Below, piece by piece: positions 30,657 to 63,961 of a stretch of DNA of 64,000 bases. Position 1 is the first letter of the stretch; each line of letters begins with the position of its first letter. This DNA comes from Escherichia coli. GTDB lineage: Bacteria; Pseudomonadota; Gammaproteobacteria; Enterobacterales; Enterobacteriaceae. Location: assembly GCF_045037415.1 (NCBI RefSeq), contig NZ_CP173440.1; one strand, written 5' to 3'. The notes under the pieces were generated by a model, which saw nothing but the letters and a program-made list of their open reading frames with translations, made no database searches and was not told where the DNA came from. Made by a program: the position numbers and the translations under genes.

Positions 30657-30681
30657 ATCTGCCCCCTTTTCGCTTTCATAC

Positions 30682-30710: not shown

Positions 30711-30713
30711 GAT

Positions 30714-36553: not shown

Positions 36554-36577
36554 TACTTAAGTGGCATATACAGTGAC

Positions 36578-37387: not shown

Positions 37388-38217
37388 GTATTCCCCTGCA
37401 GATGGCATCCGACTCCTTCATTCAGGTCGACAGGATTTCCCGCTACCGGAGTCACCCCGGACTCCCTTGGCAGAAGACCCTGCCAGTGAATGCCATTCTT
37501 AAAGATTTTTCGCTCACACTGCGTCAGCATGAGCGTGTTGGCCTGTTAGGATGTTCGGGCTGTGGAAAATCGACGTTACTGAAAGCTATCTTGGCCCTCG
37601 ACCCGGTAGATGACGGTGAGGTGTATTGTGATGGAAAGGTGGTCAGGCCCGGCTCTGCCCGAATATTGCGCTGGTATCGCCGCAGGGTTCAGTACCTTCC
37701 TCAGGAACCCGCCAGTACGTTGCCGCCGTCAATGCGTGTCAGAGAGATTCTCAACGAGCCGCTAAGACATTTAGGCTGCAACCGTGATGCGTCACCTAAT
37801 CTTGCCGCCGCGCTTGAACAGGTCGAACTCAGCGCAAAAGTTCTCGATCAGCGTGCAGGCTCGCTTTCAGGGGGGCAGGCTCAGCGCGTTGCGCTGGCAA
37901 GAGCGCTGATCATACAGCCCGATTTTTTGCTGGCCGATGAGCCGGTCAGCGGGCTGGATCTTCCCCTGCGTGAGCAAATCAAATTGCTACTTTTGCGTAT
38001 AGCAGAAGAAAACCGCATGGGGCTGCTGATTGTCTCTCATGACATTTCTATGCTGGCAGGGTTGTGCGACAGAACGCTGGTCATGGTGGCTGGAAAAATC
38101 ATTGAAGATCGCCCGACGTTTGAAATGTTGCATTTACCTCATCATCCGCATACGCGTCAGCTTCTGGACGCGGTACCGGCTCTTGTAACTCATGCCCCGT
38201 CGCTGGCACGTGGCTGA
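37384..38217 (+). CDS. ABC transporter ATP-binding protein (F-like)
   Basis: GCSGCGKST, LSGGQAQR, LLADEP; ATGA overlap with the upstream gene. Confidence 0.8.
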   Translation: MSIPLQMASDSFIQVDRISRYRSHPGLPWQKTLPVNAILKDFSLTLRQHERVGLLGCSGCGKSTLLKAILALDPVDDGEVYCDGKVVRPGSARILRWYRRRVQYLPQEPASTLPPSMRVREILNEPLRHLGCNRDASPNLAAALEQVELSAKVLDQRAGSLSGGQAQRVALARALIIQPDFLLADEPVSGLDLPLREQIKLLLLRIAEENRMGLLIVSHDISMLAGLCDRTLVMVAGKIIEDRPTFEMLHLPHHPHTRQLLDAVPALVTHAPSLARG

Positions 38218-38243
38218 ATACACTTTTAACGAATAATCTCATT

Positions 38244-39488
38244 ATGACTGAATTGATTTCAGGGAAGAAAGCGAACACCTCCCCTTCATTGCTGCTTGTC
38301 AGCCAGTTTATTTTTAATACCGGTTTTTATGCGGTAGTGCCTTTTCTCGCTATTTTTCTGCGCGATGACATGCTGTTGTCCGGTGCCGCGATTGGCCTGG
38401 TGCTCGGTCTCAGGACCTTCTCGCAGCAGGGTATGTTTCTGGTTGGAGGGGCACTGACTGACAGGTTTGGCGGACGTGCCATCATTCTGTGCGGCTGCGT
38501 GGTCCGAATCAGTGGCTACCTGCTGCTCGCCATCAGCGCCTCGTTATGGGGCGTTATTCTGGGAGCCTGCCTGACAGGGATTGGCGGTGCGCTCTTCTCG
38601 CCTGCAATCGAGTCGCTGATGGCTCAGGCGGGGACGCAAAGTGAAAGGGAAGGCAAGCGCAGCCGTTCAGAATGGTTCGCGTTGTTCTCTGTTTGTGGTG
38701 AGCTGGGTTCAGTCATCGGTCCTTTGCTGGGAGCATTGCTGACAGGGTACAGCTTTCAGAGTGTGGCCCTTGGCGGGGCAGGCGTCTTCTTGTTTGCGCT
38801 GATTATGCTCTATTTCATGCTACCGACAGGCACCAGCCATCATGGCACGCTTAAAATTTCCCCTTGGTGGACGGCATTTCACCAGCGCCGCTTTGTTGCC
38901 TTTATCGTTGCTTACAGCGCGTATTTATTCAGCTATAACCAGCTCTATCTGGCGTTACCCGTTGAACTACGCCGCTCCGGGGGAAGTGAGGCCGAGCTCG
39001 GCCCGCTGTTTATGCTGGCCTCAGTCATGATCATTTTCCTGCAATTGCCTCTGGCACGGTTTGCCCGAAAACGCGGCGCATCACAGATTTTGCCTGTGGG
39101 ATTTTTGCTGCTGGCACTGTCATTCTTTAGCGTCGCTCTGTTCGCCGGTACCACAGCGCCAGACACTCTGTGGCGGCTGCTTCCCGCGGTTTCACTAGTC
39201 ACGCTGCTGACGCTTGGCCAGATGCTTATTGTGCCTGTGGGCATGGACATGATCCCTGTTTTTGCCCGGGATAAAAATCTTGGGGCGCACTACGGAGCAC
39301 TCTCCTCCATGGGCGGCGCCACCGTGCTGGCCGGCAATTTTGCCCTCGGCGGGCTGCTGGATCGCGCACTCATCCCTTCTTCGCAGGCTTTTGTGCCATG
39401 GCTACTTATGGGCTGCATTCCGTTATGCAGCGCGGTTGCCATGCTGTTTATTTTACGATCGTTTAAAACGACCTCTGGAAATCAATAA
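38244..39488 (+). CDS. MFS transporter embedded in the ABC operon
   Basis: About 12 predicted TM helices; MFS-like signature GGALTDRFGGR. Confidence 0.65.
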   Translation: MTELISGKKANTSPSLLLVSQFIFNTGFYAVVPFLAIFLRDDMLLSGAAIGLVLGLRTFSQQGMFLVGGALTDRFGGRAIILCGCVVRISGYLLLAISASLWGVILGACLTGIGGALFSPAIESLMAQAGTQSEREGKRSRSEWFALFSVCGELGSVIGPLLGALLTGYSFQSVALGGAGVFLFALIMLYFMLPTGTSHHGTLKISPWWTAFHQRRFVAFIVAYSAYLFSYNQLYLALPVELRRSGGSEAELGPLFMLASVMIIFLQLPLARFARKRGASQILPVGFLLLALSFFSVALFAGTTAPDTLWRLLPAVSLVTLLTLGQMLIVPVGMDMIPVFARDKNLGAHYGALSSMGGATVLAGNFALGGLLDRALIPSSQAFVPWLLMGCIPLCSAVAMLFILRSFKTTSGNQ

Positions 39489-39498
39489 GGACAGATAA

Positions 39499-41025
39499 AT
39501 GAATACGGGTAAATCATTATGGCCTGTTTATGGGCTCTTGTCAGCCACCTTATTACTGACTGGCTGCTTTAATGAACCGCAGGACGAATCGGTCAGCGCC
39601 AGCGAGGGCAGAATTAAAGTGGCGCACCTTCTTCCACCGCGTTCCGGCCTGACGCCGCTCAGTGATGATGCATTTAAATTATCGCGCTGGAGCACGGCTG
39701 AAACCCTGGTCGTACTCAACAGCGCCAGTGATGCACAGCCTGCGCTGGCAACCAGCTGGGAGCAAATCAATGACACAACCTGGCGTTTTGAATTGCGCCC
39801 GAACGTCAAGTTTCATGACAATACCGATCTAACCGCGCAGTCGGTGGTTAACGCGCTGAGCGTTGCCGCTAGCGCCAAACCAAAGCCCCGTATTCTGGAT
39901 GGCATAACGCTCACAGCCAAAGTAGACGGCGATAATGCCGTACTGATCACGACTGAAAAACGCGATCCTCTTCTGCCTCAGCGTCTTTCCAGCCCTCAGC
40001 TGGCCATTTTGTCGCTGAATGCTTACAAAGAAAATGGCGTGGTGAACCCAGTTAATGCAGGAACCGGGCCATTCATTCTGCGCAGCGTGAATGGCACCAG
40101 CAGTGCCGCGCTCGATCGCTTTGATGGCTACTGGGGCGAGAAGGCGAAAGCTAGCGGTATTGACGCAAGCTTTGTTCCGGACGGGGCCGCGCGCGCAGCC
40201 GCATTACGTACTGGCACGGCGGATATCATTGAGGCAATTCCTGTGTCTCAGGCCCCGCTTCTGGATCAATCACTGGTTCATGAAGTCCCGATGCCGAGAA
40301 CCAATACGCTTTATCTCAATACGGCGCAGGGCGTGATGAAAGATCCAGCTATGCGAGCCGCAGTCCGTGACGTGATTAATCGTCAGCAGATTGTTGATAA
40401 TGTCTATGAGAAACGTGCCGACGTCGCGCAGGGGCTTCTGGGGCCAGCCTTGCCATGGGCCGCACCACTGCGCAAACCGGTGACCAACCCCGTTGCAGCG
40501 GGAAAACCAGACGGGGCCACAATCACTCTGGCAACGTTCAGCGATCGTGCGGAATTGCCTGAAGTCGCGGTCTATCTTGCACAGCAGCTCATTGCCGCCG
40601 GGTTTACCGTGAAACAAGTGGTCCGCGAGTATTCGCAGATTGAAGCTGATGCGCTGGCCGGAAAGTTTGATGCCTTTATTCTGTCGCGTGCAACCGTGCT
40701 GGATTCCGGTGACCCGGTTGCCTACATGTACAGCGATTTCGCCTGCGAAGGGTCGTTCAATATATCCCAGCTGTGCCGCCCGGAAATTGATGCAGCGCTG
40801 AAAAAAGCCCGTGAAACGCCAGCGGGTGAAACCCGACGTCAGGCCATTATGGACGCTGAAAACATGATCCTTGCCAGTGATGCTGCGATCCCAATACTAC
40901 ATGAGCGCGTCATTCAGGGAGAAAGTGCGGTAGTGAAAAATGCGCTCCGTGACCCTCGCGAGCGCACGCTCATCGACAGCCAGACCCAATTAGTCGCTGG
41001 CGAACATACTACTGCTGCGCAGTAA
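39499..41025 (+). CDS. family-5 (NikA/OppA/CntA-like) substrate-binding lipoprotein
   Basis: Lipoprotein signal (LLLTGC); size and composition of family-5 solute-binding proteins. Confidence 0.7.
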   Translation: MNTGKSLWPVYGLLSATLLLTGCFNEPQDESVSASEGRIKVAHLLPPRSGLTPLSDDAFKLSRWSTAETLVVLNSASDAQPALATSWEQINDTTWRFELRPNVKFHDNTDLTAQSVVNALSVAASAKPKPRILDGITLTAKVDGDNAVLITTEKRDPLLPQRLSSPQLAILSLNAYKENGVVNPVNAGTGPFILRSVNGTSSAALDRFDGYWGEKAKASGIDASFVPDGAARAAALRTGTADIIEAIPVSQAPLLDQSLVHEVPMPRTNTLYLNTAQGVMKDPAMRAAVRDVINRQQIVDNVYEKRADVAQGLLGPALPWAAPLRKPVTNPVAAGKPDGATITLATFSDRAELPEVAVYLAQQLIAAGFTVKQVVREYSQIEADALAGKFDAFILSRATVLDSGDPVAYMYSDFACEGSFNISQLCRPEIDAALKKARETPAGETRRQAIMDAENMILASDAAIPILHERVIQGESAVVKNALRDPRERTLIDSQTQLVAGEHTTAAQ

Positions 41026-41043
41026 AACAGGGGTTATTGATCA

Positions 41044-42819
41044 ATGAGCGAATCGCTGTACTGCCGGACCTGCGCCAGGATCCATCGGGCAGGTAACCTG
41101 CCAAAAGGCTTAGTGGCAACGTTGCTGTCGCGGATAATTACGCTGACCGGTATTGTCGTGCTGATCGGGATGCTGCCTTGGGTATCGGGCCAGGATCCCG
41201 CCATGGCGCTGCTGAGAGCGCGTTCTGCCGAACAGGAAGCAACCCCGGAAGCATTAGCAGCGATTCGCCAGTCGCTGGGGTTCGATCAGGGCCCTGTGCA
41301 ACTCCTGCTGCACTGGCTCAGCGGCCTCTTGCAGGGGGATGCAGGTAACTCTTGGATATCAGGGCGCCCGGTGCTGCCTGACATGATCCAGGCAGCCCAG
41401 GTGTCACTGACGCTGATGCTGATGTCCGCCGTGGTGGCACTGCTGCTGGCGGCGATGATTTGCCTGCCGACATTCCGACGAGGCCTGCAGGGGCGGTCGT
41501 TTCGTTCGACGGGCTTTTTCGCGTCAGTATTCACCGCATTACCTGAATTTCTTCTGGCGTCATTCTTACTGGTCGTTGGGGCCGTCTGGCTGGAGTGGTT
41601 TCCTCCTTACGGCTGGAACGGCCTGCACTATGCGGTGCTGCCCGCGCTGGCAATGGGGATCCCGGCAGGTGGCTATCTGGGGCGGATATTCTCGGATGCT
41701 TTAGCGGCAACCTTTAGTGAAAACTGGATAATCACCTGGACCGTCTCCGGGATATCGCGTTGGCACATTACCTGCGCGGTACTTAAGCGAACGCTCTCCA
41801 CCGTTATGCCGTTAATTGGCCTGGTTTTGGTGTCATTGACGGGCAGTGCAGTGGCCGTGGAAAAGGTCTTCGCCATTCCGGGGCTCGGCAGGGCAACGCT
41901 CGGTGCCGTAGTTGCACAGGATCTTCCGGCGCTGCAAATGGGCGTGCTCTTCCTGCTCATCATTGCATTTATGTTCGGAATGCTGTGTGCGGGGATCAGA
42001 TACCTCATTCTGGGGCGGGCGTTACGCACGTCCTCTCTGCCGGTCACCAATGAACCTGACGGAAAAAGCGGGAAATTGTCGCTGTTGCTTCCGTTCGCCT
42101 GTGGCGTTGCGTTGGTCGTGCTTCTGCTTATTGGTCTGCCCCGTGATCCTTACTCGTCTGAGTTTATGCGACTGGCTCATCCTTCCTTTTCGCTGCCCTT
42201 TGGGGCCGATGCCATGGGGCGTGATTTGCTGGCCAGAGTGGCCTACGGCACAGTGCATACCTGCATGCTGGCGCTGATGGTGTCGCTTATTTGTCTGCTA
42301 CTGGGGCTGGTTATTGGTCTTTTCCCCAGGGTATTTGTGGGACCGACAGAGATGGCAAATGCGCTGCCTCCGGTGATTGCGGGCTTACTGGTGGTTTCCA
42401 TCAGTGGCCCCGGCAGTTTAGGTGCGGCCATTGCGATTGCAGCAGTAGGCTGGGCGCCTCTTGCCACACATACCGCGGCGCTGGCGACAGAAATTCGCGC
42501 CAGACCTTATATCAACATGCTTCCTGTTCTGGGGGTTGGCTGGCTACGTCAGAATCTGTTTTACATTTTTCCGGCACTAATTGGCCCTCTCTTTCGTCAT
42601 GCTATGCTGCGCTTACCGGGGATCGCCCTAGCTTTGGCTTCACTGGGTTTTCTCGGGCTGGGCGCATCACCGCCGGAGCCGGAATGGGGAAGGGTACTTG
42701 CGGAAGGAATGCCTTATCTGGAGCGCGCCTATTGGGTCGTTCTGGCACCTGCAGTCGCCCTTGCCGTTTTGTCGGTGATGGGCGTGAGTCTGGCCGGTCT
42801 GACGGGTCAAAAAAAGTAA
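41044..42819 (+). CDS. fused ABC permease (NikB/NikC-like double transmembrane domain)
   Basis: 591 aa with two permease-like halves. Confidence 0.65.
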   Translation: MSESLYCRTCARIHRAGNLPKGLVATLLSRIITLTGIVVLIGMLPWVSGQDPAMALLRARSAEQEATPEALAAIRQSLGFDQGPVQLLLHWLSGLLQGDAGNSWISGRPVLPDMIQAAQVSLTLMLMSAVVALLLAAMICLPTFRRGLQGRSFRSTGFFASVFTALPEFLLASFLLVVGAVWLEWFPPYGWNGLHYAVLPALAMGIPAGGYLGRIFSDALAATFSENWIITWTVSGISRWHITCAVLKRTLSTVMPLIGLVLVSLTGSAVAVEKVFAIPGLGRATLGAVVAQDLPALQMGVLFLLIIAFMFGMLCAGIRYLILGRALRTSSLPVTNEPDGKSGKLSLLLPFACGVALVVLLLIGLPRDPYSSEFMRLAHPSFSLPFGADAMGRDLLARVAYGTVHTCMLALMVSLICLLLGLVIGLFPRVFVGPTEMANALPPVIAGLLVVSISGPGSLGAAIAIAAVGWAPLATHTAALATEIRARPYINMLPVLGVGWLRQNLFYIFPALIGPLFRHAMLRLPGIALALASLGFLGLGASPPEPEWGRVLAEGMPYLERAYWVVLAPAVALAVLSVMGVSLAGLTGQKK

Positions 42820-52376: not shown

Positions 52377-53039
52377 GTGCAATCAATGAGTAATACTGAT
52401 AACGGGACGAAGATCTACACTCCATTAACTCTGAAACTATATGACTGGTGGGTGCTTTGCATTTCGAATAGTTACGCATGGAATTGTTCAACAAAGGATA
52501 TTTTAATTCCTTATTTTTTACAAAACTTAAGTCCTAACCACCTAGATATTGGCGTTGGTACTGGTTATTATCTCACTAAAATCCCTGCTCACTATAATAT
52601 ATCCCTCATGGATCTTAACCCTGCCAGCTTGAAAGCTGCATCGGCAAGAGTAGGGGAAGATAGAATACACTATAAAGTTAGGCATGATGTATTTGAATCT
52701 TACCCAGAGGAACTTCATGGAAAATTTGATTCCATATCAATGTATTACCTCATCCATTGTCTACCAGGAACAATGGAAGATAAAAGAATTGTCATAAAAA
52801 ACGCGAAGGCCGCCTTAACTAAAGGTGGAATACTTTACGGAGCAACCATACTTGGTGATAAGGTAAGGCATAATAGTTTTGCGTTAAAACTGTTGCAAAT
52901 TTATAACAAAAAAGGTATTTTTTCTAATTTTAGTGATTCAGAAGAAGAACTAAAAAAAATGCTTTCTCATTATTTTAAAAATATTGATGTCATTGTGAAA
53001 GGTGCTGTCGCAATGTTCTCTGCGCATGGAAAAAAATAG
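52377..53039 (+). CDS. class I SAM-dependent methyltransferase
   Basis: DIGVGTGYY (motif I). Paralog of the ORF at 61472..62179. Confidence 0.55.
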   Translation: MQSMSNTDNGTKIYTPLTLKLYDWWVLCISNSYAWNCSTKDILIPYFLQNLSPNHLDIGVGTGYYLTKIPAHYNISLMDLNPASLKAASARVGEDRIHYKVRHDVFESYPEELHGKFDSISMYYLIHCLPGTMEDKRIVIKNAKAALTKGGILYGATILGDKVRHNSFALKLLQIYNKKGIFSNFSDSEEELKKMLSHYFKNIDVIVKGAVAMFSAHGKK

Positions 53040-53399
53040 CTATTTATCATTTTTTCCTGGATTTATCTTTTTTAAAAACACCTTGTGAACTGATCCCATA
53101 GTTTATATTAAGCGACTAACAGGGCTTGGGTTCGGTCCTCTACCGGACTCAGGCCTTTTTGTTTTATTCTTTCATGGTTGTAATAGTGGATGTACTCATC
53201 TATAGCCATGCGCAACTAGCTGATATTCTTATGTTCCTTCAGGTAAAAACATTCAATCTTTAGCGTACCGAAGAAGCTTTCCATTACTGCATTGTCGTGA
53301 CATTTTCTCTTTCTTGACATGCTCTGTTTCAGGCCGCTGCCCTTAAGTCGCTTCTGATAATACGCCATCTGGTAGTGCATCTAATTAGTAGAACATGTA

Positions 53400-54110
53400 T
53401 TTTTCAATGAAGGCCCCGATGACTTTTTCATGCAGCTCAACAGAGCGTGAGAAACAGACGGTCGGCGAGCCAGGCGTTTGATTCGGGTTCTCAGCGTCAG
53501 ATTGTTTCGCTCAATGCGCTGAGTAGAGATTTTGCCGGTCAGATGCTTATCCTTCGGCACCTCTCTGGCGTAACTTCCCAGTCATCGCTGGTTATTATGC
53601 TGATATTAAACGGTGTGAGCAGAGCCAGCAGCGCACTGCAGGTTGCATCGGTCCGTGGCCCAAAAGTATAGGCCAGCACACCACCTGTTTTCGTGTTGTA
53701 CGCGTACCAGAGCCAGTGCTACCGGGCTTTGCTGCCGACCTCCATTGCTCGTGGAGTTCGCAGATGAGCGCCACATCGGCATGAGCAACCGGAGATGTGG
53801 TTACTCGTCGTGGCGCGAGTTTTTTAAAGTGCGAATAACGGTGTTAATGCCGATTTTGAGTGTCCTTGCGGTATCACAGACGCCGGCTCCGTTGAATGCC
53901 ATTTCGGTAATTTTCTCTTTGACGCCGTGCTTGCGTGCTTCATAAGTATAAGTGAGCAGAAACACGCGGTAGCAATCGCGGCAGCGAAACCGGTCACGGC
54001 CTTTAGGGCTCTGCCTGTGGCGGAAAACTTGGTCAGACTGACAACGGGGGCAATGAACGGTAACGCTGGTCATGAACAAACCTCAAAAGCACGCATCATA
54101 CATCAATTCA
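53400..54110 (-). mobile_element. degraded IS1-family element (divergent isoform) next to an IS3-family fragment
   Basis: InsA-like ORF 53801..54079 (…CPRCQSDQVFRHRQSPKGRDRFRCRDC…); InsB-like region 53430-53800 is frameshifted; IS3-type OrfB piece at 53200-53400. Confidence 0.55.
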
Positions 54111-54221
54111 ATTAATTAGAGGCATTGATCTCCTCCCTGAAAACAGTGCCGTCTCCTCGCCTCGTGAGCTCACACCAACAGAAGCACCGGCAGAAATAAG
54201 AATCCCTGGTTTCTCCTGATA

Positions 54222-55651
54222 CTATTTAATAATTTCTGACAGGGCCTGACCTGCTTTCTGAATATAAACTGGTTGCGAGACCTCACCCAGCTGATTGGCA
54301 ACCATCCGGGTTTCATAATGACTGGCAGTTAATACCAGAGCTGGCCCGTGAATACAGGACAGTTGTTCAACTACTGCCTTTAACCATTGACCTGAAAATA
54401 TCTGTTCTTTCGGGTCATCGAACACCTTTGGAAAATCAGCACCGGCGATGGTCAGCTTCATTGAGCCATAGACGTCTGGGGAGAATATTTTCCTGATTGA
54501 AATCGTATCGCTGGTTAACCCCAGAGCTTTACATAACCACTCCATTCCGGTCTCTGGGGTACTGGTAATAGAGAGGGTAGCCGACGTCAGTAACGCACTA
54601 CGCCACTGAGTGCAGTATCTGCCCACATTCATCCCGATAAACGGGTTTACAGCGATCAGGGCTGGTTCACGACGTTTATTGGAAACGCCTACGCCCTTTT
54701 GCCCCCGGACAATCCGAGCATATCCCTGCTGTAGATACAGTCAAAGAAAGCTTTCCGGGCCGCTTCATTTTTTATTTTCCGCCCTACCTTTGATAAGGCG
54801 TTAAAGCTATTGTCAAACAAGGCAACCGCTGCAGGCGTACTACAAAAATGCAGATCGCCCGCTATCGAAGTCACGTCGTTCATTAACTGGTCGATGACAT
54901 GCACGCCATTACGTGGAATATGTTCATTGAACGCACTAGTCAACTCTCTGAGGTTGAAGCGCCGCTGTTTCCAGACCTCAAGCATATCTACAAAAATGTC
55001 TGCCTCATCAATAATGAGGTACATATTTTCTTTGTCACCGAGGATGCGGTGATTACACATACAGTCGACCATTACCATCGCATGGGTCGTAACAATAAAG
55101 TTAGCACTGAGAGCATTCAGGCGAATATCATCAATGTCCTGTATATCATCCCAGATGGAGTAGGTGACCATCTCTGGCGTGATCTGCGCTGGCAGTTCAC
55201 CATACTCTTCTTCAAACTCAACCAGAGGTTTTGACCAGTTAGCGAGTTTTTCAAGGACCTTAACCGTATCCAGATCGGTAAATTCGTCCATGAGTAACAG
55301 TCCACGTACTTTCTCCAGGGATACGTAATTTACTTTCCCCATAAGCCGGGAAAAAGTAACTTTTATGCCGCATTGTTCAGCTATCTGTTCAAGGAGAGGA
55401 CGATCGCTTCTGAATATCTGGTGCATCAGTGCATGAGAATTCGTGGCAATCACAAATTTTGCCTCAGGGTTTTTCAGCAGAATCAGAAGCGCCGGTACCA
55501 GATAGCCCAGCGTTTTTCCTACACCTGTTTCAGCACTAATCAGTGCAACTTTATGATCCTGAGTCAGTGCACCAGCTGCAGCCTCGATATAATCCTGTTG
55601 GACCTTACGTAACGACAATCCGGCAGACTCAAATACCGCTGATGTATTCAT
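54222..55651 (-). pseudogene. DinG/Rad3-like SF2 helicase, frameshifted and C-terminally truncated
   Basis: Walker A ETGVGKT and LIIDEAD in ORF 54689..55684; LLTSATLS in ORF 54222..54632 in a different frame. The gene ends against IS-derived DNA. Confidence 0.5.
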
Positions 55652-55653
55652 GA

Positions 55654-56220
55654 CTACTGCCCCGCCAGATGCATGAAACCGCAACCAAATACGCGTTTAG
55701 GGCCTACGCCATAAACGATTCCCACTTCAGCTTCCTGTTGATTGCTGATTATGGCGGTACCCTGTACCGTGAATACGGGTAGCGTAAAACCACGTCCAGC
55801 ATTTCCTTTGTCGATATGGACGAATTTCGGGCCACTGACGACGATTTGACCGGGTTTAAACCCAGCCTTCGCTAATTTGGTGAGGGCCAACTGATAACTA
55901 GCCTCTTCAGATGGAGCAAACTGGCGTCGGCCACGGCCTTCTGACTTTGTTCCTTTATGAAAGATGGCCATTAACGTAATGAACTTGATTTCATGGCCCT
56001 CAGAGAGAATAAGCTCTCTTTTTTTCTCCCCAGGCAACTCCAGAGCTGTAGCTGTGCGGACCAGGAGTAACGAATCATCCCCGGTACCGGGAAAAATTTT
56101 AAAAGAGTACGGCAGCTTCTCTCCCTTACGTTCCTGCATGAAAAAATCCAGGTGCTGGTGGATCTGGTAAACACTTGTGTGACGGATACGCAACCGAAAC
56201 GCATTATCGTAGTAAATCAT
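55654..56220 (-). CDS. hypothetical protein, translationally coupled upstream of the helicase gene
   Basis: 188-aa ORF; stop overlaps the probable helicase start (ATGA). Confidence 0.35.
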   Translation of the reverse strand: MIYYDNAFRLRIRHTSVYQIHQHLDFFMQERKGEKLPYSFKIFPGTGDDSLLLVRTATALELPGEKKRELILSEGHEIKFITLMAIFHKGTKSEGRGRRQFAPSEEASYQLALTKLAKAGFKPGQIVVSGPKFVHIDKGNAGRGFTLPVFTVQGTAIISNQQEAEVGIVYGVGPKRVFGCGFMHLAGQ

Positions 56221-56276: not shown

Positions 56277-57332
56277 GGCTTTGTTGAATAAATAAGATTT
56301 CGTGCGAACGACCCTGTAGCTGGCTGGATTTTCAGGCAATACGCACGCTTTCTGGCATCCCAGCCTTTGTCATCCTGTTCAACGCACGCACCATGGCCAT
56401 AGCTTCCGCTACCTGACCATCGTAGTCACGCAGCGTCAGTGAATCTCCCAACAACTGCTTCATTCTGTACATTGCCGTTTCCGCTATCGAGCGACGGTTA
56501 TATTCCGTTGTCCATTTCCACCGTGCATTGCTTCCGCTCAGCCGCTGATTAGCAACGGCACGGTTGCGGTCTGCGTACTCACCGGGCCAGTAACCTGCTC
56601 CTTTTCGGGGAGGAATAAGCGCGCTGATTTTTTTGCGGCGCATTTCATCGTGACAAAGCCGTGTATCGTAAGCCCCGTCTGCCGCGGCTGCCCTGATTTT
56701 TCTGTGAGTCTGCCGGATAAGGCCCGGGAAGGCTTCTGAGTCCGTGACGTTATTCAGCGACAGGTCTGCACAGACAACTTCATGTGTGTTGCTGTCAACA
56801 GCAAGATGCAACTTTCGCCAGATACGACGGCGCTCTTTGCCGTGCTTTCTGACTTTCCATTCGCCTTCACCAAAGACCTTCAGCCCGGTGGAATCAATCA
56901 CCAGGTGTGCGATTTCACCCCGGGTGGACGTTTTGAAACTGACATTAACCGACTTTGCCCGCTTACTGACACTGGTGTAATCCGGGCAGCGCAACGGAAC
57001 GTTCATCAGGGCAAAAATGGAATCAATAAAACCCTGCGCAGCCCGCAGGGTCAGCCGGAATACGCGTTTAATCACCAGAACGGTGGTGATGGCGAGATCA
57101 GAATAGCGCTGGGGCCTTCCTCGTGATGAAGGCGTTGCCGACTCATACCAGGCCTGAATCGCCTCATCATCCAGCCAGAAAGTGAGGGAGCCACGGTTGA
57201 TGAGAGCTTTGTTGTAAGTGGACCAGTTGGTGATTCTGAACTTTTGCTTTGCCACGGAATGGTCTGAGTTGTCGGGAGGATGCGTGATCTGATCCTTCAA
57301 CTCAGCAAAAGTTCGATTTATTCAACAAAGCC
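56277..57332 (-). mobile_element. IS903 (IS5 family), 1056 bp, no target-site duplication
   Basis: Terminal inverted repeats GGCTTTGTTGAATAAAT at both ends; flanking 9-mers differ. Confidence 0.95.
56332..57300 (-). CDS. IS903 transposase
   Basis: Near-identical to IS903/IS102 transposase (…KFRITNWSTYNKALINRGSLTFWLDDEAIQAWY…). Confidence 0.95.
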   Translation of the reverse strand: MKDQITHPPDNSDHSVAKQKFRITNWSTYNKALINRGSLTFWLDDEAIQAWYESATPSSRGRPQRYSDLAITTVLVIKRVFRLTLRAAQGFIDSIFALMNVPLRCPDYTSVSKRAKSVNVSFKTSTRGEIAHLVIDSTGLKVFGEGEWKVRKHGKERRRIWRKLHLAVDSNTHEVVCADLSLNNVTDSEAFPGLIRQTHRKIRAAAADGAYDTRLCHDEMRRKKISALIPPRKGAGYWPGEYADRNRAVANQRLSGSNARWKWTTEYNRRSIAETAMYRMKQLLGDSLTLRDYDGQVAEAMAMVRALNRMTKAGMPESVRIA

Positions 57333-57543
57333 CTTTGACATGCACAATTATTGTCTGCCCAATAGTCCGATAGTTAGCCTGTTTACAAAAACTGTTGCTG
57401 GTCATACTGGTGCTTTATTCCCGGTTAAGCGGGCTAGTTAACCCAGAGTGATGAACCATCCTGGAGTGGCAGATAAAGCAGAAAGAATGGATTTGTTGCC
57501 CTGATTTTTTCCGAATCTAAATAAAGATTAGCTTAATCACTCG

Positions 57544-57561
57544 TTGTTATGTTATAACATT
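57544..57561. promoter_or_regulatory. Zur-box-like operator
   Basis: TTGTTATGTTATAACATT, the best match to the window consensus. Confidence 0.55.
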
Positions 57562-57565
57562 AAAT

Positions 57566-57817
57566 TAGCAATATTCTCAGCCAGCAGCACGGCCTGTGGG
57601 GGGCGGTTATTGAGAACGAATTCGGTGAAATCTGTATAGATGATGCATTGGTTATCAATGCAGATGAAGAAGTCTTCGAGATGAATAATGGCTGCATCTG
57701 CTGCACGGTGCGAGGAGATTTGATTCATATCCTGAGTCGTCTGATGTACCGCCGCGATAAATTTGACCGTATTCTGATCGAATTCCACCGGGATGGCCAA
57801 TCTACTGAGTGAAGCAA
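57566..57817 (+). pseudogene. COG0523 GTPase fragment (CxCC region only)
   Basis: Unannotated plus-strand frame reads …VIENEFGEICIDDALV…EEVFEMNNGCICCTVRGDL… The P-loop N-terminus and the C-terminal domain are absent. Confidence 0.5.
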
Positions 57818-57999
57818 ATGAAGAGAGAGCCGCTAACGATCCTGAATGGTTTTCTTAGTCCTAGTAAAAACATGCGGTTAAAAATTTGTTAATGCAGACA
57901 CCTCAACCACAATTTCGATGTGCGTCATCGTGAACGATTTGAGCGGACAGGATGTCGGCGGCGTCCTGATTGCCAGTATAGAAATCAAGAAGGAACACC

Positions 58000-58827
58000 A
58001 TGAAGCGCAATACCGTAAGTAATCTGACAGAAAAAGATGATTTTGATACGCTGGAAAGTATTCTCAGCGTTAATATTCATTCTCTGTTGCGGCCAGACGG
58101 CGGGACGTTGCTTTCTGACGTCCATTTTGCGGTCAAAGCAGGAGAATGTCTGGCCATTATCGGGCCTAACGGCAGCGGTAAAACTTCCCTCGTGAGAGCG
58201 ATTAGTCAGGAACTGACCCATCTAAAGGGGGACATTCTTCTGCGGGGCCGTTCTATGTCTGCTTTATCCCGTCAACAGCGAGCCCGGCTGGTTGCTGTTT
58301 TGGCCCAGAATGATACACCTGATACGAGATTATCCCTTGAGGATTATGTAGCGCTGGGGCGTATCCCTCATGCCGGGGATGTACCGCGTAATGTACATGA
58401 CGCGATTGTAGCAAATGCCATTAAAGAAACCGGATTACAACGGCTACGCAGGCGGTCACTTTTATCGCTTTCCGGCGGCGAAAGACAACGAGCGGCGCTG
58501 GCACGGGTACTGGCACAGACGCCCGACCTGGTATTGCTTGATGAACCCACCAATCATCTCGATCCTCCCGGGCGCGAGGAACTGCTTTCCCTTGTAAAAA
58601 ACAAGGGGATTGCCGTCGTGGCGGTGTTGCACGATCTGACACTGACAGAATCATTTGCTGACCGTGTTCTCCTCTTGTCGCAGGGGCAATCAGTGATCTG
58701 TGACACACCGGAGAAGGTATTGGTATCAGAATACCTTTATCCCGTTTTTGGCTTGACCAGTTTTACCGTACCGCATCCCCATACAGGAAAGGCGTTGCGT
58801 ATTTTTGAAGTTCCGCATTATGTATAA
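58000..58827 (+). CDS. ABC transporter ATP-binding protein (FecE/FhuC/BtuD-like)
   Basis: GPNGSGKTS, LSGGERQR, LLDEPT. Confidence 0.8.
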   Translation: MKRNTVSNLTEKDDFDTLESILSVNIHSLLRPDGGTLLSDVHFAVKAGECLAIIGPNGSGKTSLVRAISQELTHLKGDILLRGRSMSALSRQQRARLVAVLAQNDTPDTRLSLEDYVALGRIPHAGDVPRNVHDAIVANAIKETGLQRLRRRSLLSLSGGERQRAALARVLAQTPDLVLLDEPTNHLDPPGREELLSLVKNKGIAVVAVLHDLTLTESFADRVLLLSQGQSVICDTPEKVLVSEYLYPVFGLTSFTVPHPHTGKALRIFEVPHYV

Positions 58828-58845
58828 ATTACTTTCCGAGAGTCA

Positions 58846-59805
58846 GTGATGAAAAAATTGTTTATATCCCTGCTGTCGGTACTGTCTGCTTCAGTAGCCA
58901 GTGCTGCCGATTTTCCTGTTACTATTGAAAGTTGTGGGACTCCTGTAACATTCTCCGGCCCGCCGAAAAGGGCTGTGATCAACGACCTTAATATGGCAGA
59001 GATGGCGTTTGCACTGGATTTGCAGGATCGTATTGTTGGGCTGACCGGTATTAGTGGCTGGTACAAAATGACGCCGGAATTTAAAAAGGCGATGGGCTCG
59101 ATCCCTGAACTGGCACCCAAATATCCCACCCTGGAAACATTGCTGGCAGCCGAGCCTGATTTCTTTTTCGCTGGCTGGAACTATGGAATGAAAGTAGGCG
59201 GCGAAGTGACGCCGGATACGTTAAGCAAATATGGCATCAAGACTTTCGTTCTGAGTGAAAGCTGTGTGTTCACCACTGCGCACAAAAATAAAGCCACGAT
59301 GGATCTGCTGTATAACGATATCCTCACGCTGGGTAAGATTTTTGGCAAGCGCAATGACGCACTGTCCCTAGTCAGCGGCTGGCAAAAGAGGCTGAGTGAA
59401 CTGCCGAAGCCAGCGGCAGGTACCCGTCCTTTAAAGGTGTTCGTCTACGACTCAGGTGAGGATAAACCGTTTACCAGTGGTAAATATGCGATGCCTACGG
59501 CCATGATTGAGGCGGCTGGTGGTAAAAATGCAATGGAGGCGCTGGATACCAGTTGGGGAACGACGTCTTGGGAAAGCGTGGCCGCTACTGAGCCGGACTT
59601 CATTATTTTGTTAGATTACCAGACGGGCAGCGGTGCGGATACACTGCGTCATTTTCTTGAGAATCATCCGTTAATGAAACTGACTCCGGCTGTTCAGCAT
59701 CATCGATACCTGAAATTACAATATGCTGAACTGACGCCGGGACCAGCTAATGTTGGTGCGGTGGAAAAACTCGCGTGGGCAATGTACCCGACAGAAGCGA
59801 AGTGA
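58846..59805 (+). CDS. class III periplasmic binding protein (FecB/FhuD/BtuF-like)
   Basis: Signal peptide; size and pattern of chelate/cobalamin-type binding proteins. Confidence 0.65.
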   Translation: MMKKLFISLLSVLSASVASAADFPVTIESCGTPVTFSGPPKRAVINDLNMAEMAFALDLQDRIVGLTGISGWYKMTPEFKKAMGSIPELAPKYPTLETLLAAEPDFFFAGWNYGMKVGGEVTPDTLSKYGIKTFVLSESCVFTTAHKNKATMDLLYNDILTLGKIFGKRNDALSLVSGWQKRLSELPKPAAGTRPLKVFVYDSGEDKPFTSGKYAMPTAMIEAAGGKNAMEALDTSWGTTSWESVAATEPDFIILLDYQTGSGADTLRHFLENHPLMKLTPAVQHHRYLKLQYAELTPGPANVGAVEKLAWAMYPTEAK

Positions 59806-60809
59806 TGCTCATGTCGTACCGTTATCACTGGGTGATGTGGGGATCGATGGTCGTGCTGATTGGGTTAATGTTATTCAGCATAACCAGAGGGACAGTCTCA
59901 CTGTCGCTAATGCAGGTGCTGGGTGCACTGAAGATTGTGGATGAGCCGGTATCTGCCATGGTCAGCAGAATTGTGACGGATTTACGCGTACCGAGGATGT
60001 TGCTCTCTGTGCTGACAGGGGCGGGACTGGCAATGGTAGGGGCATTGTTACAAACTACCACCCGTAACGATCTGGCTGATCCTTTTTTATTCGGGTTATC
60101 CTCCGGTGCGTCAGCAGGAGCGGTGCTGGTGATCACCCGTTTTGGTGATCGACTAGGAGTATTAACGCTCCCCGTATCGGCGTTTGTTGGTGGTGTGTGT
60201 TCCGCCATAGCAGTAATGCTGTTATTTCATTTTAAAAAGCAACGCGGAGCTGAGCATCTAATTCTCTGCGGTCTTGCCATCTCTTTTTTGTTCGGGGCGC
60301 TGACTAGTTATTTTATTTTTTCGGGCGATCAGCGAGCCGCCAGCTCAGTGCTTTTCTGGTCACTGGGTGGCCTGGGATTAGCCACCTGGAATAATTTGCC
60401 TTTTGCAGTGTTCAGCCTGGTATTGCTGTTTGCCTTTGTCCTGTTGCGGTGGCGCTCTCTGGATGGTGTGCTGGCAGGAGAACAAACAGCGTTGTCGCTG
60501 GGGATTAACGTGAGTCGTCTGCGCATCGAGATTTTTCTTTGTTGTGCACTGGCAACATCGTTGATGGTGGCATTAACCGGCGTGATTGGATTTGTTGGCT
60601 TAATGGTGCCTCATCTGTGTCGGCATTTTGCAGGAGTTAAGCATCTGTTGTTGTTACCTCTGTGTGGCGTCTGGGGTGCAATATTACTGTGTGTCGGCGA
60701 TATAGTCAGCCGGACGATACTGGCACCACAGGAACTACCAATTGGCATTATTACGGCGGGCATTGGAGGGTTGTTTATTATCATGTTACTCGCGCGAAAC
60801 TCGCCCTAG
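59805..60809 (+). CDS. FecCD-family ABC permease
   Basis: Multi-TM protein with FecCD-like motifs; TGATG stop/start overlap with the binding-protein gene. Confidence 0.7.
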   Translation: MLMSYRYHWVMWGSMVVLIGLMLFSITRGTVSLSLMQVLGALKIVDEPVSAMVSRIVTDLRVPRMLLSVLTGAGLAMVGALLQTTTRNDLADPFLFGLSSGASAGAVLVITRFGDRLGVLTLPVSAFVGGVCSAIAVMLLFHFKKQRGAEHLILCGLAISFLFGALTSYFIFSGDQRAASSVLFWSLGGLGLATWNNLPFAVFSLVLLFAFVLLRWRSLDGVLAGEQTALSLGINVSRLRIEIFLCCALATSLMVALTGVIGFVGLMVPHLCRHFAGVKHLLLLPLCGVWGAILLCVGDIVSRTILAPQELPIGIITAGIGGLFIIMLLARNSP

Positions 60810-61129
60810 AGAATATGGGCGATTACTCGCCGGGCCTCCTGTAATTTTCAAGCGATGTTATGAAACGATGGTAATCTAACTGATGGTTTGAGCGTGCCAT
60901 GTAAGTAAAGAAGAACTGGCAAACCTTAATGTTGCATTATATCATAACAAATGATAAGTGAGGCCCAATGTTTCTCTTACTGGTCGTGCTCCCAAGCATG
61001 CCTTTGGCGAAAAGGTTAGACCTCAGGCTGCGTTCAGCAACTACATGATATCTGTCTGGATTGTGACGGAGATGCGGTACTACTGCTTGTGGTTCAAAAA
61101 GGTGAAGCCTGCCACACAAGTCGGCGGAG

Positions 61130-61552
61130 TTGTTTTTACAACGCTACCGCCGGCCTTTTCATCCGACCCGTTTCTGGCAGGTGATGGAAAATGAGCTGGA
61201 TGAAGTCGTCAGATCAAAAGGTTACTTCTGGCTGGCCAGCCGTCCGGAATTCGCAGGTTCATGGTCACAGGCTGGTGGCATTGCGCGCCAGGCGCTGGGG
61301 GGCATGTGGTGGGCGAGTGTGCCGAAAGAACGTTGGCTAGAGGATGCTGAGTCACTGAAGTTCATCATGTCTAACTGGATAGATGGCATTGGTGATGCCC
61401 GTCAGGAACTCGTTTTTATTGGAATGGATATGAATGAATCAAAACTGCGCAACAGACTGGATTCCGCCCTGTTAACGGATGCAGAAATGGCTGAAGGGCC
61501 TCAAAATTGGCGGCATTATCCCGATCCTGTTGAGCCTTGGTTCGAAGAATGA
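61130..61552 (+). pseudogene. C-terminal fragment of a COG0523 gene (about 95% identical to the C-terminus of the 30714..31937 product)
   Basis: …[18 protein letters not shown]…PVEPWFEE aligns to the C-terminus of the 30714..31937 protein; no N-terminal GTPase domain. Confidence 0.6.
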
Positions 61553-62179
61553 ATCGAAGGCACCCGTATTTGTCGGGTGCCTTCGTATGAGGGCGAAAAA
61601 GGGGCCATTTTTTAGCCCTTCTTCAGAATCACTCATATTAGAAAAAATACCTTTGTGATTATAAATCCTCATTAGTTTTGATGTGAAACTATTATGCATT
61701 ACCCCATCGCCAAGTATGGTTGCCCCGTAAAGTATTCCGTCCTTAGTTAAAGCAGCTTTCACGTTTTTTATGACAACACCTTTATCCACCATCGCCCCAG
61801 GAAGACAATGTAAGAGATAATACATTGATATAGAATCGAATTTACCATGTAGTTCCTCTGGATAAGATTCAAATACATTATGCTGAACTTCATACCGTAT
61901 TCTGGCTTTCCCTATCCTTGCTGATGCCGTTTTCAAACTAGCCTTATTGAGATCCATAAGTGAGATATTGTAATTTGCAGGAGCTTTGGCAAGATAATAC
62001 CCAGTTCCAACGCCAATATCTAAATGGTTAGGTCTTAAATTTTGTAAAAAATAAGGGAGCAAAATCTCTTTTGTCGGACAATGCCAAGCGTAACTGTTGG
62101 AAATGCTCAGCACCCACCAGTCATAAAGCTTCAAAGTGAATGGTGTGTAGATCTTCGTTCCTTCATCAACATTACTCAT
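61472..62179 (-). CDS. class I SAM-dependent methyltransferase paralog; 3' end altered by a junction with the COG0523 fragment
   Basis: Matches the 52377..53039 product for about 190 aa (…DIGVGTGYY…) and then diverges into sequence antisense to the COG0523 fragment. Confidence 0.45.
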   Translation of the reverse strand: MSNVDEGTKIYTPFTLKLYDWWVLSISNSYAWHCPTKEILLPYFLQNLRPNHLDIGVGTGYYLAKAPANYNISLMDLNKASLKTASARIGKARIRYEVQHNVFESYPEELHGKFDSISMYYLLHCLPGAMVDKGVVIKNVKAALTKDGILYGATILGDGVMHNSFTSKLMRIYNHKGIFSNMSDSEEGLKNGPFFALIRRHPTNTGAFDSFFEPRLNRIGIMPPILRPFSHFCIR

Positions 62180-62404: not shown

Positions 62405-62540
62405 ATGGAAATATGGAAATATGGAAATATGGAAATATGGAAATATGGAAATATGGAAATATGGAAATATGGAAATATGGAAATATGGAAATATGGAAAT
62501 ATGGAAATATGGAAATATGGAAATATGGAAATATGGAAAT
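62405..62540. repeat. 17 perfect tandem copies of the 8-bp unit ATGGAAAT
   Basis: 136 bp of uninterrupted ATGGAAAT repeats in the intergenic region. Confidence 0.95.
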
Positions 62541-62665: not shown

Positions 62666-63865
62666 TTAAGCCAGCCGGGCCACTTTCGTGGGCCAGGGAT
62701 CGTGGAAAATCCCCCCCTGCTGCCACCAGAGAATTTCCTCTTCAGTGAGTAAACACTGGCGCAATGCGAGGGCAAAATCGTCAATTTCGCCGCTCTCGCC
62801 AATAACAGTCAGGCGGCAGCGCCGGTCACCAAATCTGCCCGGCATTTTTGCCAGTTGCTGACGGATAGCTGCGCGTTCTTCCTTTGTCAATGAATTATCA
62901 GTGTGAGTCAGGACCCCGGCTTTCCAGTAGCTTATGAATTCGAGATTGATGCTCCCTGCTGCCTGGTTCCACAATAATGCCAGGTCATCCCTTCCCGGTA
63001 GCCAGAAAAAACCCTTGCTGCGGTAAACGCCTGCGCCCATGAAGCGATGGCAGGTATCCCACAGCCGCTGCGGATGAAATGGGCGGTCATCCTCAATGAC
63101 CCGCCACGAAATATCATATTTTTTGTCGGGTTCATCCGACAAAACTGCATCAATTGCATCCTGAAGCTCATCGATAAGTAACGCCACCCGATGAAAATCG
63201 TAATCCGGCATGGAAAGCAATTCATCCAGCTGTAAATTTCCCCAGGGCACGGCCATAATTGCAACCTGCGGATTAAGGGGATGTATGGCTCTGGCTACCT
63301 CAGTAACAACATAGAAGGGTAATCTGTCGTTTTTGGTTAACAAGAGCTTATTACAGAACATAATCTGTTCTGCCAGCAGGCTTTCCACTCCCCGGGTCCC
63401 TCTGTTGAGGTGCTCCTGGAAAACCGGAATAAGTTTCTTTCCACCGTCGTAGTCATCATTAAGCATGACCGTATCTACAAGCGACAAAAATGCTTTAAGA
63501 CTTACCTGGGGGTGTTCTCGCAGATAGCGGACCAGGGGAAGAGGATGGCTGCTGCCTGACGTTTCCAGTAAAATAAAATCCGGAGACCGTTTTTCGAGCA
63601 GGTTTTTCAGCGCGGAATCCAGCTTCTGGATCCCACTTCTGCTGCTGATACTGTCTGCTGAAATACTCACAAAATTGTTACTGGCTGCATCAACGATTTC
63701 TGTGTTGGCTATCAGGACGCCATCCACATCAAGTTCACTCATGTCATTAACGATGACGGATACAGCCATTCGCCGTTTGTGTGCCTGTGTAAGAAGGTTT
63801 TTTAGCAGAGTAGTTTTTCCTGCTCCCAGAAAACCATTAAGGATAATGAGCGGTGTTCTTTTCAT
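62666..63865 (-). CDS. second copy of the SxSA-type COG0523 GTPase paralog
   Basis: Protein differs from the 24372..25571 product at only a handful of positions; DNA identity begins right after the stop codon (24357 / 62652). Confidence 0.8.
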   Translation of the reverse strand: MKRTPLIILNGFLGAGKTTLLKNLLTQAHKRRMAVSVIVNDMSELDVDGVLIANTEIVDAASNNFVSISADSISSRSGIQKLDSALKNLLEKRSPDFILLETSGSSHPLPLVRYLREHPQVSLKAFLSLVDTVMLNDDYDGGKKLIPVFQEHLNRGTRGVESLLAEQIMFCNKLLLTKNDRLPFYVVTEVARAIHPLNPQVAIMAVPWGNLQLDELLSMPDYDFHRVALLIDELQDAIDAVLSDEPDKKYDISWRVIEDDRPFHPQRLWDTCHRFMGAGVYRSKGFFWLPGRDDLALLWNQAAGSINLEFISYWKAGVLTHTDNSLTKEERAAIRQQLAKMPGRFGDRRCRLTVIGESGEIDDFALALRQCLLTEEEILWWQQGGIFHDPWPTKVARLA

Positions 63866-63961
63866 AGCATCCAGCCTTATGCCGCTAAACGTTAATGCAA
63901 TCAAGTTGCAATAATACCGGCTTCCTGCCAGAATTCAAATGACATGACTCGGAGGGGGAAA

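Follow-up and report, generated by a model that had tools for sequence, protein, structure and literature searches.

A predicted Zur-controlled type II importer, probably for cobalt and/or zinc, surviving in a decayed zinc island of a pLVPK-type virulence plasmid

A 64,000-nucleotide stretch of the Escherichia coli contig NZ_CP173440.1 (the window, by which we mean this whole stretch; coordinates without a prefix refer to it) carries a three-gene ABC importer operon at 58000–60809, behind the remains of COG0523 GTPase genes and a predicted Zur box, and the question it raises is what the importer carries and which regulator commands it. The plasmid literature names the genes 'fepBC … from Mesorhizobium loti … ABC iron transporter', and RefSeq calls the permease an 'iron ABC transporter permease'. 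The window is DNA of a pLVPK-type Klebsiella pneumoniae virulence plasmid: the segment 57400–61600 matches over 500 K. pneumoniae virulence plasmids of the pLVPK/pK2044 type, and their E. coli transconjugants, with 100% identity, and 523 plasmids reach an identity of at least 99%. Our comparison of this locus with its relatives points away from iron: the operon probably encodes a Zur-repressed type II importer, the only functional unit left in a decayed second copy of the plasmid's zinc island, with cobalt and/or zinc as its cargo and not a ferric siderophore.

The operon comprises the following genes:
58000–58827, + strand: ABC ATPase (WP_004213252.1), intact, with full-length NCBIfam matches of the HmuV/FecE/BtuD type (heme/FecE/BtuD)
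58846/58849–59805, + strand: class III (Peripla_BP_2) periplasmic binding protein, intact, with a Sec signal peptide (…ASA/AD)
59805–60809, + strand: FecCD/BtuC-type permease, intact, with full-length NCBIfam matches to BtuC/FecD/FhuB profiles

An initial annotation, made from the sequence alone, had described an operon of ATPase, class III binding protein and FecCD permease here, and all three genes are indeed intact across 58000–60809. The motifs of the ATPase are complete (Walker A GPNGSGKT, Q-loop, signature LSGGE, Walker B LLDEPT and H-loop), and a ribosome-binding site (RBS), AAGGA, lies 7 nt upstream of its start. PF01497 is listed as a precomputed Pfam domain in all homologues of the binding protein, whose AlphaFold2 model (pLDDT 88.8) has the two-lobe class III fold, with a TM-score of 0.80 to 4MLZ; its best structural matches, solved and predicted, are class III substrate-binding proteins (SBPs). 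Residues 15–332 of the permease match BtuC/FecD profiles, and its start codon overlaps the binding-protein stop codon; a deletion junction makes up its last codons, the C-terminal tail being naturally variable across orthologues. On these features, 58000–60809 is a predicted type II ABC importer. The best NCBIfam family for the transporter, still below threshold, is the 'putative F420-0 ABC transporter' set, and members of the binding-protein fold family in Pseudomonas spp. are 39–45% identical. Homology of the binding protein, put forward in the initial annotation as a route to the substrate, gave no assignment from solved structures or AFDB models: the nearest structural neighbours are uncharacterised proteins, behind which binders of heme, B12, molybdate and catecholate follow with roughly equal scores.

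Upstream of the operon, the control region and its boundary are laid out as follows:
56277–57332, − strand: IS903 (IS5 family), with 18-bp inverted repeats at 56277–56294 and 57315–57332 and a transposase open reading frame (ORF) at 56332–57300
57333–57544, + strand: ancestral intergenic region holding the promoter, together with the last 6 bases of a lost Nik/Opp-type ABC ATPase gene
57541–57564, + strand: predicted Zur operator, with its core TGTTATGTTATAACA at 57545–57559 and a second, overlapping register at 57550–57564

The core TGTTATGTTATAACA is the sole match without mismatch, in the 64-kb window, to the Zur core pattern TGTTATNNTATAACA, which we used after the 23-mer consensus (≤3 mismatches) gave nothing. 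With up to 2 mismatches, this pattern has 14 matches in the window against 1.78 ± 1.43 expected, and the others precede island genes; the validated E. coli znuA/znuC operator itself has 1 mismatch to TGTTATNNTATAACA. The operator resembles in form the pLVPK sites in Haas et al. 2009 and published alpha- and gammaproteobacterial candidate sites. The initial annotation had placed the best consensus box directly before a COG0523 fragment, and that fragment begins at 57564. It had also placed IS903 immediately beside the box; the element does lie on the box's other side, at a distance of 212 bp. IS903 is the left boundary of the locus. The 9-mers that flank it differ (atcagtcgg and ctttgacat) and so form no target-site duplication, which marks a rearrangement junction.

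To place the operon among its relatives, we searched for relatives of the binding protein in one genome of each species and kept the 80 closest loci. Because a simple ORF caller picks antisense ORFs in GC-rich loci, those loci were re-read with ORF lists and family searches. The order ATPase, binding protein, permease is the same in all 80. Of the 39 gammaproteobacterial loci, 27 have a Zur box (≤1 mismatch) in the 300 nt ahead of the ATPase gene; outside that stretch, the background density in these loci is 0.0044 per 300 nt. The genera concerned are Klebsiella, Shimwellia, Dickeya, Pectobacterium, Brenneria, Samsonia, Budvicia, Ewingella, Pantoea, Serratia, Entomohabitans, Aeromonas, Vibrio, Grimontia and Enterovibrio, and the orthologous operons share a consensus 20-bp element, TGTTATgTTATAACATAnCA. 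In the 27 orthologues the box stands at the operon's own promoter with no COG0523 gene between; four more gammaproteobacterial loci have it before a longer operon (COG0523-WD40-ABC or folE2-carbonic anhydrase-ABC). The initial annotation had raised the contrary prospect of a transporter with its own zinc-independent promoter that clusters with siderophore systems; what we found in many genera is a Zur box at that promoter and no clustering with siderophore genes.

These data bear directly on the reading behind the name fepBC, in which the operon imports an iron complex (siderophore or heme) and the Zur box is a leftover of the dead COG0523 gene. Besides its currency in the literature and RefSeq, that reading can draw on family-level similarity to Fec, Fep, Fhu and Hmu components, on aerobactin genes about 8 kb beyond the transporter locus (RefSeq annotation) and on Fur-like boxes about 85–245 nt upstream of the ATPase gene in the chromosomal orthologues of K. 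indica, K. spallanzanii, K. michiganensis and Entomohabitans, where the pairing of a Fur-like with a Zur box suggests dual zinc and iron control in those species. The window locus itself does not support Fur control, the best match in 57333–58000 having 5 mismatches to the 19-mer, a level reached by about 1% of random 370-nt windows. Scores for Fep, Fec and Fhu identity fell far under the equivalog cutoffs (FepC-type, 134 against 497; FecE, 162 against 375; enterobactin permease, 155 against 422; EitA, 91 against 640), the best family match being another one, and an NCBIfam search returned no FepB, FecB or FhuD match for the binding protein. Clustering the neighbouring ORFs of the 80 loci revealed no linked siderophore genes and no conserved partner (receptor, exporter or biosynthesis gene); the recurring neighbours were housekeeping genes only, among them PriA, MetL, MetB, PyrB and MetE. 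None of the ten large ORFs (≥600 aa) read in the vicinity of the operon was receptor-like by sequence inspection; MetE, an EfeU-like permease, CobN and a resistance–nodulation–division (RND) pump were among them. A leftover box is hard to square with the own-promoter boxes of the 27 orthologues, and the alpha- and betaproteobacterial orthologues described below answer to B12. We regard an iron-complex importer as very improbable.

Remnants of decayed genes flank the operon on either side:
57564–57812, + strand: pseudogene, internal fragment of a long COG0523 GTPase (codons ~24–96; 249-bp open frame)
57818–57986, + strand: pseudogene of a second COG0523 type, N-terminal ~58 codons, frameshifted (paralogue intact at 62666–63904)
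60805–60860, − strand: 5'-terminal remnant of a Zur-like regulator gene of the Fur family (first 56 bp; aligns with L005:10642–10697)
60930–60949, + strand: degraded double Zur box of the hisI-zigA promoter (TGTTGCATTATATCATAACA, against TGTTACGTTATAACATAACA in L005; three substitutions in 20 bp)
60968–61146, + strand: hisI (phosphoribosyl-AMP cyclohydrolase) pseudogene with a 182-bp internal deletion
61130/61147–61552, + strand: zigA-type COG0523 pseudogene, C-terminal third (NCBIfam ZigA positions 257–389; 'missing N-terminus' in RefSeq)

The first of these is a pseudogene of the WD40-paired COG0523 type (subfamily 5 of Haas 2009), with 90% amino-acid identity to the ORF at 4589–5938 of L005, the corresponding locus of Phytobacter massiliensis. 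Its NCBIfam matches, of the CobW/ZigA/YjiA type, span only profile positions ~20–99; it keeps the CXCC motif (GCICC), has a +1 frameshift near 57783 and has lost the P-loop, the switch regions, the C-terminal domain, the RBS and the start codon. Where the initial annotation had one COG0523 fragment upstream of the transporter, a second and different one, which it did not describe, follows at 57818–57986: by blastn this is 69% identical to 63695–63865 and 67% to 25401–25571, its tblastn pieces cover query positions 1–22 and 30–57, and it is also present in L005 and in L006, a locus of Superficieibacter sp. The COG0523 C-terminal fragment that the annotation had placed after the permease is there as well and is ZigA, a paralogue different from the upstream fragment; 61147–61552 has 97% nucleotide identity both to L005 and to the plasmid's own intact zigA. 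The degraded box at 60930–60949 is a 2-mismatch match to the Zur core and overlaps a promoter-like site at 60916–60945, and the regulator remnant corresponds to the start of L005 ORF 10185–10688(−), for which Zur is the best family match, below cutoff.

The P. massiliensis locus, whose transporter proteins are 94–98% identical to those of the plasmid, has the complete arrangement and keeps the ancestral layout of the plasmid locus:
L005, first part: Nik/Opp-type ABC system; intergenic region with the identical box; ~450-aa COG0523 GTPase; 345-aa WD40-repeat protein
L005, second part: ~190 bp with the second COG0523 remnant; transporter; divergent Zur-like regulator gene; double box; hisI; zigA

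Region 57333–57544 is 91% identical to L005:4327–4554, the stop codon of L005 ORF 3697–4332 aligning at 57336–57338. Compared with L005, the plasmid has lost about 106 bp right after the box, which removed the RBS, start codon and P-loop of the GTPase gene; 2.06 kb that took the rest of this gene and the entire WD40 gene; about 670 bp of the Zur-like regulator gene; 182 bp of hisI; and two thirds of zigA. Each of the 576 matching PLSDB plasmids shares these deletions, and none of them has an intact COG0523-WD40 version. The three transporter genes have escaped this decay and are under purifying selection, with ratios of non-synonymous to synonymous change (dN/dS) against L005 of 0.19 for the ATPase, 0.16 for the binding protein and 0.05 for the permease, compared with ~0.32 for the remnants. 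The 20-bp operator is identical to that of L005 in surroundings (228 bp) that are 91% identical, and the hisI box, which now stands before dead genes only, has decayed while the transporter box is intact. The initial annotation had pictured a Zur-controlled locus in decay with a possibly intact importer, and the L005 layout, the shared deletions, the full-length genes with low dN/dS and the unchanged box bear this out.

Two further lineages show related losses. In Superficieibacter sp. (L006), 13 GTPase codons are left after the box, and in S. electus (L007), 16 C-terminal WD40 codons; this suggests that the COG0523-WD40 pair was lost independently in three lineages (the plasmid, L006 and L007) that kept the box and the ABC genes, the shortness of the L006 and L007 remnants making the evidence suggestive only. 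L006 also has, at 6540–6733 on its − strand, about 260 nt upstream of the Zur box, an Rfam match to the Yersinia small RNA Ysr251 (130 bits; gathering score 100). In 32 E. coli chromosomes, among them that of O55:H7 DEC5E (L004, 6566–12816), the same zinc island abuts the yersiniabactin-island integrase; the ATPase gene is truncated there, with only its last third left, and hisI has an internal stop, so that the importer is dead, in contrast to the plasmid.

These chromosomal copies, in which loss was evidently tolerated, belong to the case for an importer that is intact but silent on the plasmid, its genes cut off from a working promoter by the deletions and the IS903 rearrangement, or its long untranslated leader made polar by them, and the plasmid too young for its ORFs to have decayed. 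All that surrounds the operon is pseudogenised, the scan for consensus promoters was empty both near the box and ahead of the ATPase gene, and 523 plasmids at such high identity give little time depth. Since the split from L005 (synonymous divergence, dS, 0.09–0.17) the three genes have taken no frameshift and have kept dN/dS at 0.05–0.19, while over the same span their neighbours took five deletions, frameshifts and the decay of a box. The unchanged operator, and the retention of box and ABC genes through the independent deletions of two other lineages, likewise speak against silence, which we consider distinctly unlikely. The evidence shows that selection preserved the transporter and its operator as every neighbouring gene decayed.

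Relatives outside the gammaproteobacteria brought an unexpected second signal. In alpha- and betaproteobacterial loci, whose SBPs are 58–64% identical to that of the plasmid, Rfam searches found cobalamin riboswitches upstream of the operon, and a profile built from these matches placed one on the operon strand in 36 of ~40 loci; the same profile found none in the gammaproteobacterial loci or in the window. The riboswitch in L034 was not counted as direct control, belonging as it does to nrdAB and not to the ABC genes. A DUF1636 gene stands between riboswitch and ATPase gene in 21 loci. Both signals meet in some genomes: a Zur-type box (≤2 mismatches) lies within 200 nt upstream of the riboswitch in 12 of the 36 loci; M. 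erdmanii has an exact Zur-type box over the −10 element of a TTGACA promoter, 70 nt before the riboswitch; and in Phyllobacterium loci such a box lies between riboswitch and ATPase gene. Alphaproteobacterial Zur sites with the same core were reported earlier (Haas et al. 2009, PMC2770081). Five loci (L048, L049, L058, L060 and L075) have a ZigA-type GTPase next to the ABC genes, and M. loti shows the order box, ZigA, riboswitch, transporter. In a Rhodoferax sp. and a Burkholderiales metagenome-assembled genome (L046 and L073), riboswitch, cobB, transporter, true CobW (501 bits against a cutoff of 332) and cobN follow one another, a placement between cobB and CobW-cobN that puts the transporter at the cobalt-insertion step.

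The wiring to Zur and to B12 riboswitches, the Zn/Co-chaperone GTPase neighbours, the position beside cobW-cobN and the precedent of Pseudomonas aeruginosa PA2911–PA2914 (discussed below) together argue for cobalt and/or zinc as the cargo. Siderophores, heme or cobalamin, the substrates that the initial annotation named for importers of this type, can be narrowed to the cobalt/zinc economy by the riboswitches and the cobW/cobN neighbours. More broadly, and with more doubt than conviction, we suggest that these operons could form a family of cobalt (or cobalt/zinc) importers, widespread in proteobacteria and so far uncharacterised, that is controlled by the riboswitch in alpha- and betaproteobacteria, by Zur in gammaproteobacteria and by both in Mesorhizobium and Phyllobacterium.

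The 36 riboswitches are also an argument for a corrinoid (vitamin B12 or cobinamide) importer switched on through Zur, so that B12-dependent enzymes, for example MetH in place of MetE, would spare zinc. MetE is the abundant zinc-dependent, B12-independent methionine synthase, and in Serratia sp. AKBS12 (L024, 4742–7030) metE lies directly upstream of the Zur box and the transporter on the same strand, which may be coincidence or a hint of this B12/zinc-sparing idea. The SBP fold, closest to the heme/B12 class with weak BtuF matches, and the 187–188 bits of the permease on BtuC profiles point the same way. The scores nevertheless lie far under the equivalog cutoffs for BtuFCD (BtuF, 27.7 against 234; BtuC, 187 against 334; BtuD, 122 against 281), and enterobacteria already possess BtuB and BtuFCD. 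Placement between cobB and cobW-cobN is usual for cobalt supply, not for salvage, and the recurrent metal-chaperone GTPase partners (ZigA, CobW and COG0523-5) fit a metal cargo. Finally, CbtJ, a BtuF-like protein encoded behind a riboswitch, proved to be a Co(II) carrier (PMC7689651). Comparison of structures does not decide between the two kinds of cargo, and we judge the corrinoid alternative unlikely, though a serious rival.

For Zur binding, transcription through the leader and the substrate of the cobalt and/or zinc importer we infer the following sequence of events. In zinc-replete cells Zn-Zur, the chromosomal protein and possibly also the plasmid-borne Zur-like paralogue, would bind the 57541–57564 operator at the ancestral promoter. 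Upon zinc starvation, transcription would start at the box and cross the untranslated pseudogene leader of about 440 nt without meeting a terminator, and the three translationally coupled transporter genes would then be expressed. The class III periplasmic protein would hand its ligand to the BtuCD-like complex of permease and ATPase, and the ligand would be a divalent metal that relieves the zinc shortage, cobalt and/or zinc, as the ion or a small chelate. We found no terminator-like site on the + strand from the box to the ATPase gene, and the promoter scan called no separate consensus promoter in that interval.

Several observations weigh against this model. At the box, the 23-mer textbook Zur consensus has no match within 3 mismatches, because the left flank of the box is poor. 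The promoter scan called no consensus σ70 promoter at the box, where the best hand-fitted candidate, TTAATC-16-TAACAT, scores 7/12; as the scan was empty there and upstream of the ATPase gene, we only infer the promoter. Rho-dependent polarity could act on the 440-nt untranslated leader. Among the orthologues, one Serratia paralogue group has no Zur box, and at four loci (L008, L009, L011 and L032) a Fur-like box with 2–4 mismatches to the 19-mer stands beside the Zur box. No gene for an outer-membrane receptor is present in the window locus, and none is linked in most of the 80 loci. As to the cargo, the closest solved structures to the binding protein are uncharacterised proteins followed by heme and B12 binders, and a corrinoid importer would be expected just as much to stand behind a cobalamin riboswitch.

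In RefSeq the locus reads as follows, and two intact genes complete its downstream end:
RefSeq annotation, in order: IS5-family transposase; frameshifted 'GTP-binding protein' pseudogene; ABC ATPase; substrate-binding protein; FecCD permease
RefSeq annotation, continued: hisI pseudogene; second GTP-binding pseudogene; methyltransferase; CobW-family GTPase
61472–62179, − strand: class I S-adenosylmethionine (SAM)-dependent methyltransferase, intact, a neighbour gene with no shown link to the transporter
62666–63904, − strand: CobW-family COG0523 GTPase, intact, 98.5% identical to the copy at 24375–25571

The SAM-dependent methyltransferase exists in three copies, the intact one, a 190-codon copy at 52386–52955 (81% identity) and a 51-codon remnant at 30639–30791. 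The intact gene and the 51-codon remnant each converge on and overlap a zigA 3' end, an arrangement suggestive of an ancestral zigA/methyltransferase pair. A perfect 8-bp tandem repeat, ATGGAAAT × 17, occupies 62405–62540, in the gap that separates the COG0523 stop (62666) from the methyltransferase start (62179), both genes being on the − strand; slippage in this tract could change methyltransferase expression.

Further upstream, 15.8–33 kb of the window is a large island of zinc-independent paralogues, and other zinc-related sites and unrelated fragments lie between it and the importer:
Island at 15.8–33 kb: hemB, pyrC, thrS-like, carbonic anhydrase, folE2, dksA2, two COG0523 genes, cysS, hisI and two Fur-family genes

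The pLVPK island was flagged earlier as a Zur-regulated cluster (Haas et al. 2009, PMC2770081). Two of its Zur-type boxes match sites in that study: one at 24332, before dksA2-folE2-carbonic anhydrase, and one at 32395–32414, between hisI-zigA and the Zur-like regulator gene. Another, at 27622, precedes oxidoreductase and nucleoside-recognition genes after cysS. The plasmid's two Fur-family genes lie at 25669–26118 and 32520–33017; the product of the latter is a divergent Zur-like protein (85 bits on the Zur profile, cutoff 167), and that of the former matched no NCBIfam model at 1e-8. Either protein could compete with, or supplement, chromosomal Zur at the boxes. A further Zur-type box, TGTTATGTTATCACA at 36538–36552, lies about 25 nt before a pair of NikD/CntD-like and NikE/CntF-like ATPase genes, followed by a major facilitator superfamily exporter, a NikA-like binding protein and a fused permease (region to 42816). 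The import-plus-export layout of 36538–42816 is like that of opine-metallophore (Cnt) loci, with no biosynthesis genes seen there, and in related plasmids an ISEc33 copy lies directly upstream. Between an IS1 copy and IS903, 53300–56220 holds − strand ORFs at 54222–54632, 54689–55684 and 55654–56220 that are unrelated to the zinc loci and has the appearance of a mosaic of fragments bounded by insertion-sequence elements.

Plasmids of the pLVPK type define hypervirulent K. pneumoniae, and 'fepBC' is routinely counted among their iron-acquisition systems; the evidence moves it to the zinc-starvation response, the other arm of host nutritional immunity (calprotectin). If the family-wide reading suggested above is true, the hypervirulence plasmid would carry the importer against the withholding of zinc by the host, and its 'third iron system' would not be an iron system. 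At the level of the family, the switch between Zur and riboswitch, in some cases with both, is a concrete and testable link between zinc limitation and cobalt/B12 supply, so far shown experimentally only in P. aeruginosa, and cobalt import as a zinc-sparing response would, if the reading is right, be general and not a Pseudomonas peculiarity. A three-gene operon with a defined operator and natural variants with and without COG0523-WD40 partners makes clean experimental material. Earlier work had already provided the sequence of the plasmid, its first island and the concept of FecCD-type importers under Zur regulation; in the literature we found no report that places this operon or family in the Zur regulon or notes the regulatory swap between Zur and B12.

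Among known systems, P. aeruginosa PA2911–PA2914, a Zur-regulated TonB-dependent receptor and FecCD-type ABC importer for which pyochelin-cobalt uptake has been proposed, brings in cobalt, which mitigates zinc starvation in that species (PMC11481552, PMC13083405). The plasmid operon resembles it in having a Zur box before a siderophore/B12-like type II ABC importer, in its predicted place in the zinc-starvation response and in the link to cobalt; it differs in that a receptor is unlinked in the plasmid locus and no pyochelin-type metallophore is known for the host. We take the order ATPase, binding protein, permease and a position beside cob genes to be shared as well. For PA2912–PA2914, a search of 50% representatives and two cluster look-ups returned no Pseudomonas names, and a metagenome scan with the published PA2911 primer gave mostly chance matches and one true 1.4-kb contig with a PA2911 fragment.

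Sinorhizobium meliloti CbtJKL is an ABC cobalt importer under a cobalamin riboswitch that was once taken for a B12 system (PMC7689651). It is likewise of the FecCD type with a BtuF-like binding protein, and it shares the riboswitch with the alpha- and betaproteobacterial orthologues of the plasmid system, whereas its gene order is binding protein, permease, ATPase and the plasmid copy has no riboswitch. With identities of 25% (binding protein), 39% (permease) and 41% (ATPase) and a different gene order, we rejected orthology and treat CbtJKL as an analogue only. In the yersinopine-type cnt opine zincophore loci, a FecCD/Peripla_BP_2 importer has been assigned to zinc on genomic grounds (Morey & Kehl-Fie 2020, PMC7438024); by contrast, no cntL, cntM or EamA gene was seen beside the window locus, and Yersinia is absent from the 80 closest loci. 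FepBCDG, FecBCDE, FhuBCD and BtuCDF of E. coli and Salmonella have the same architecture and folds, but the plasmid proteins score far under their equivalog cutoffs, and the operon has a Zur box and no significant Fur box.

Closest in context is the cluster of Haas et al. 2009 (PMC2770081), who paired COG0523 subfamily 5 with WD40 proteins, often with znuCBA under Zur. It lies on the same plasmid and has the same type of box (LV196 hisI2-yciC and LV190 dksA2-folE2-cam), but the sites given there stand only before COG0523 genes; neither the FecCD importer with its box nor the decayed second locus appears among them. At the locus described here, the partner transporter is of the FecCD type, in place of the ZnuABC found in that study.

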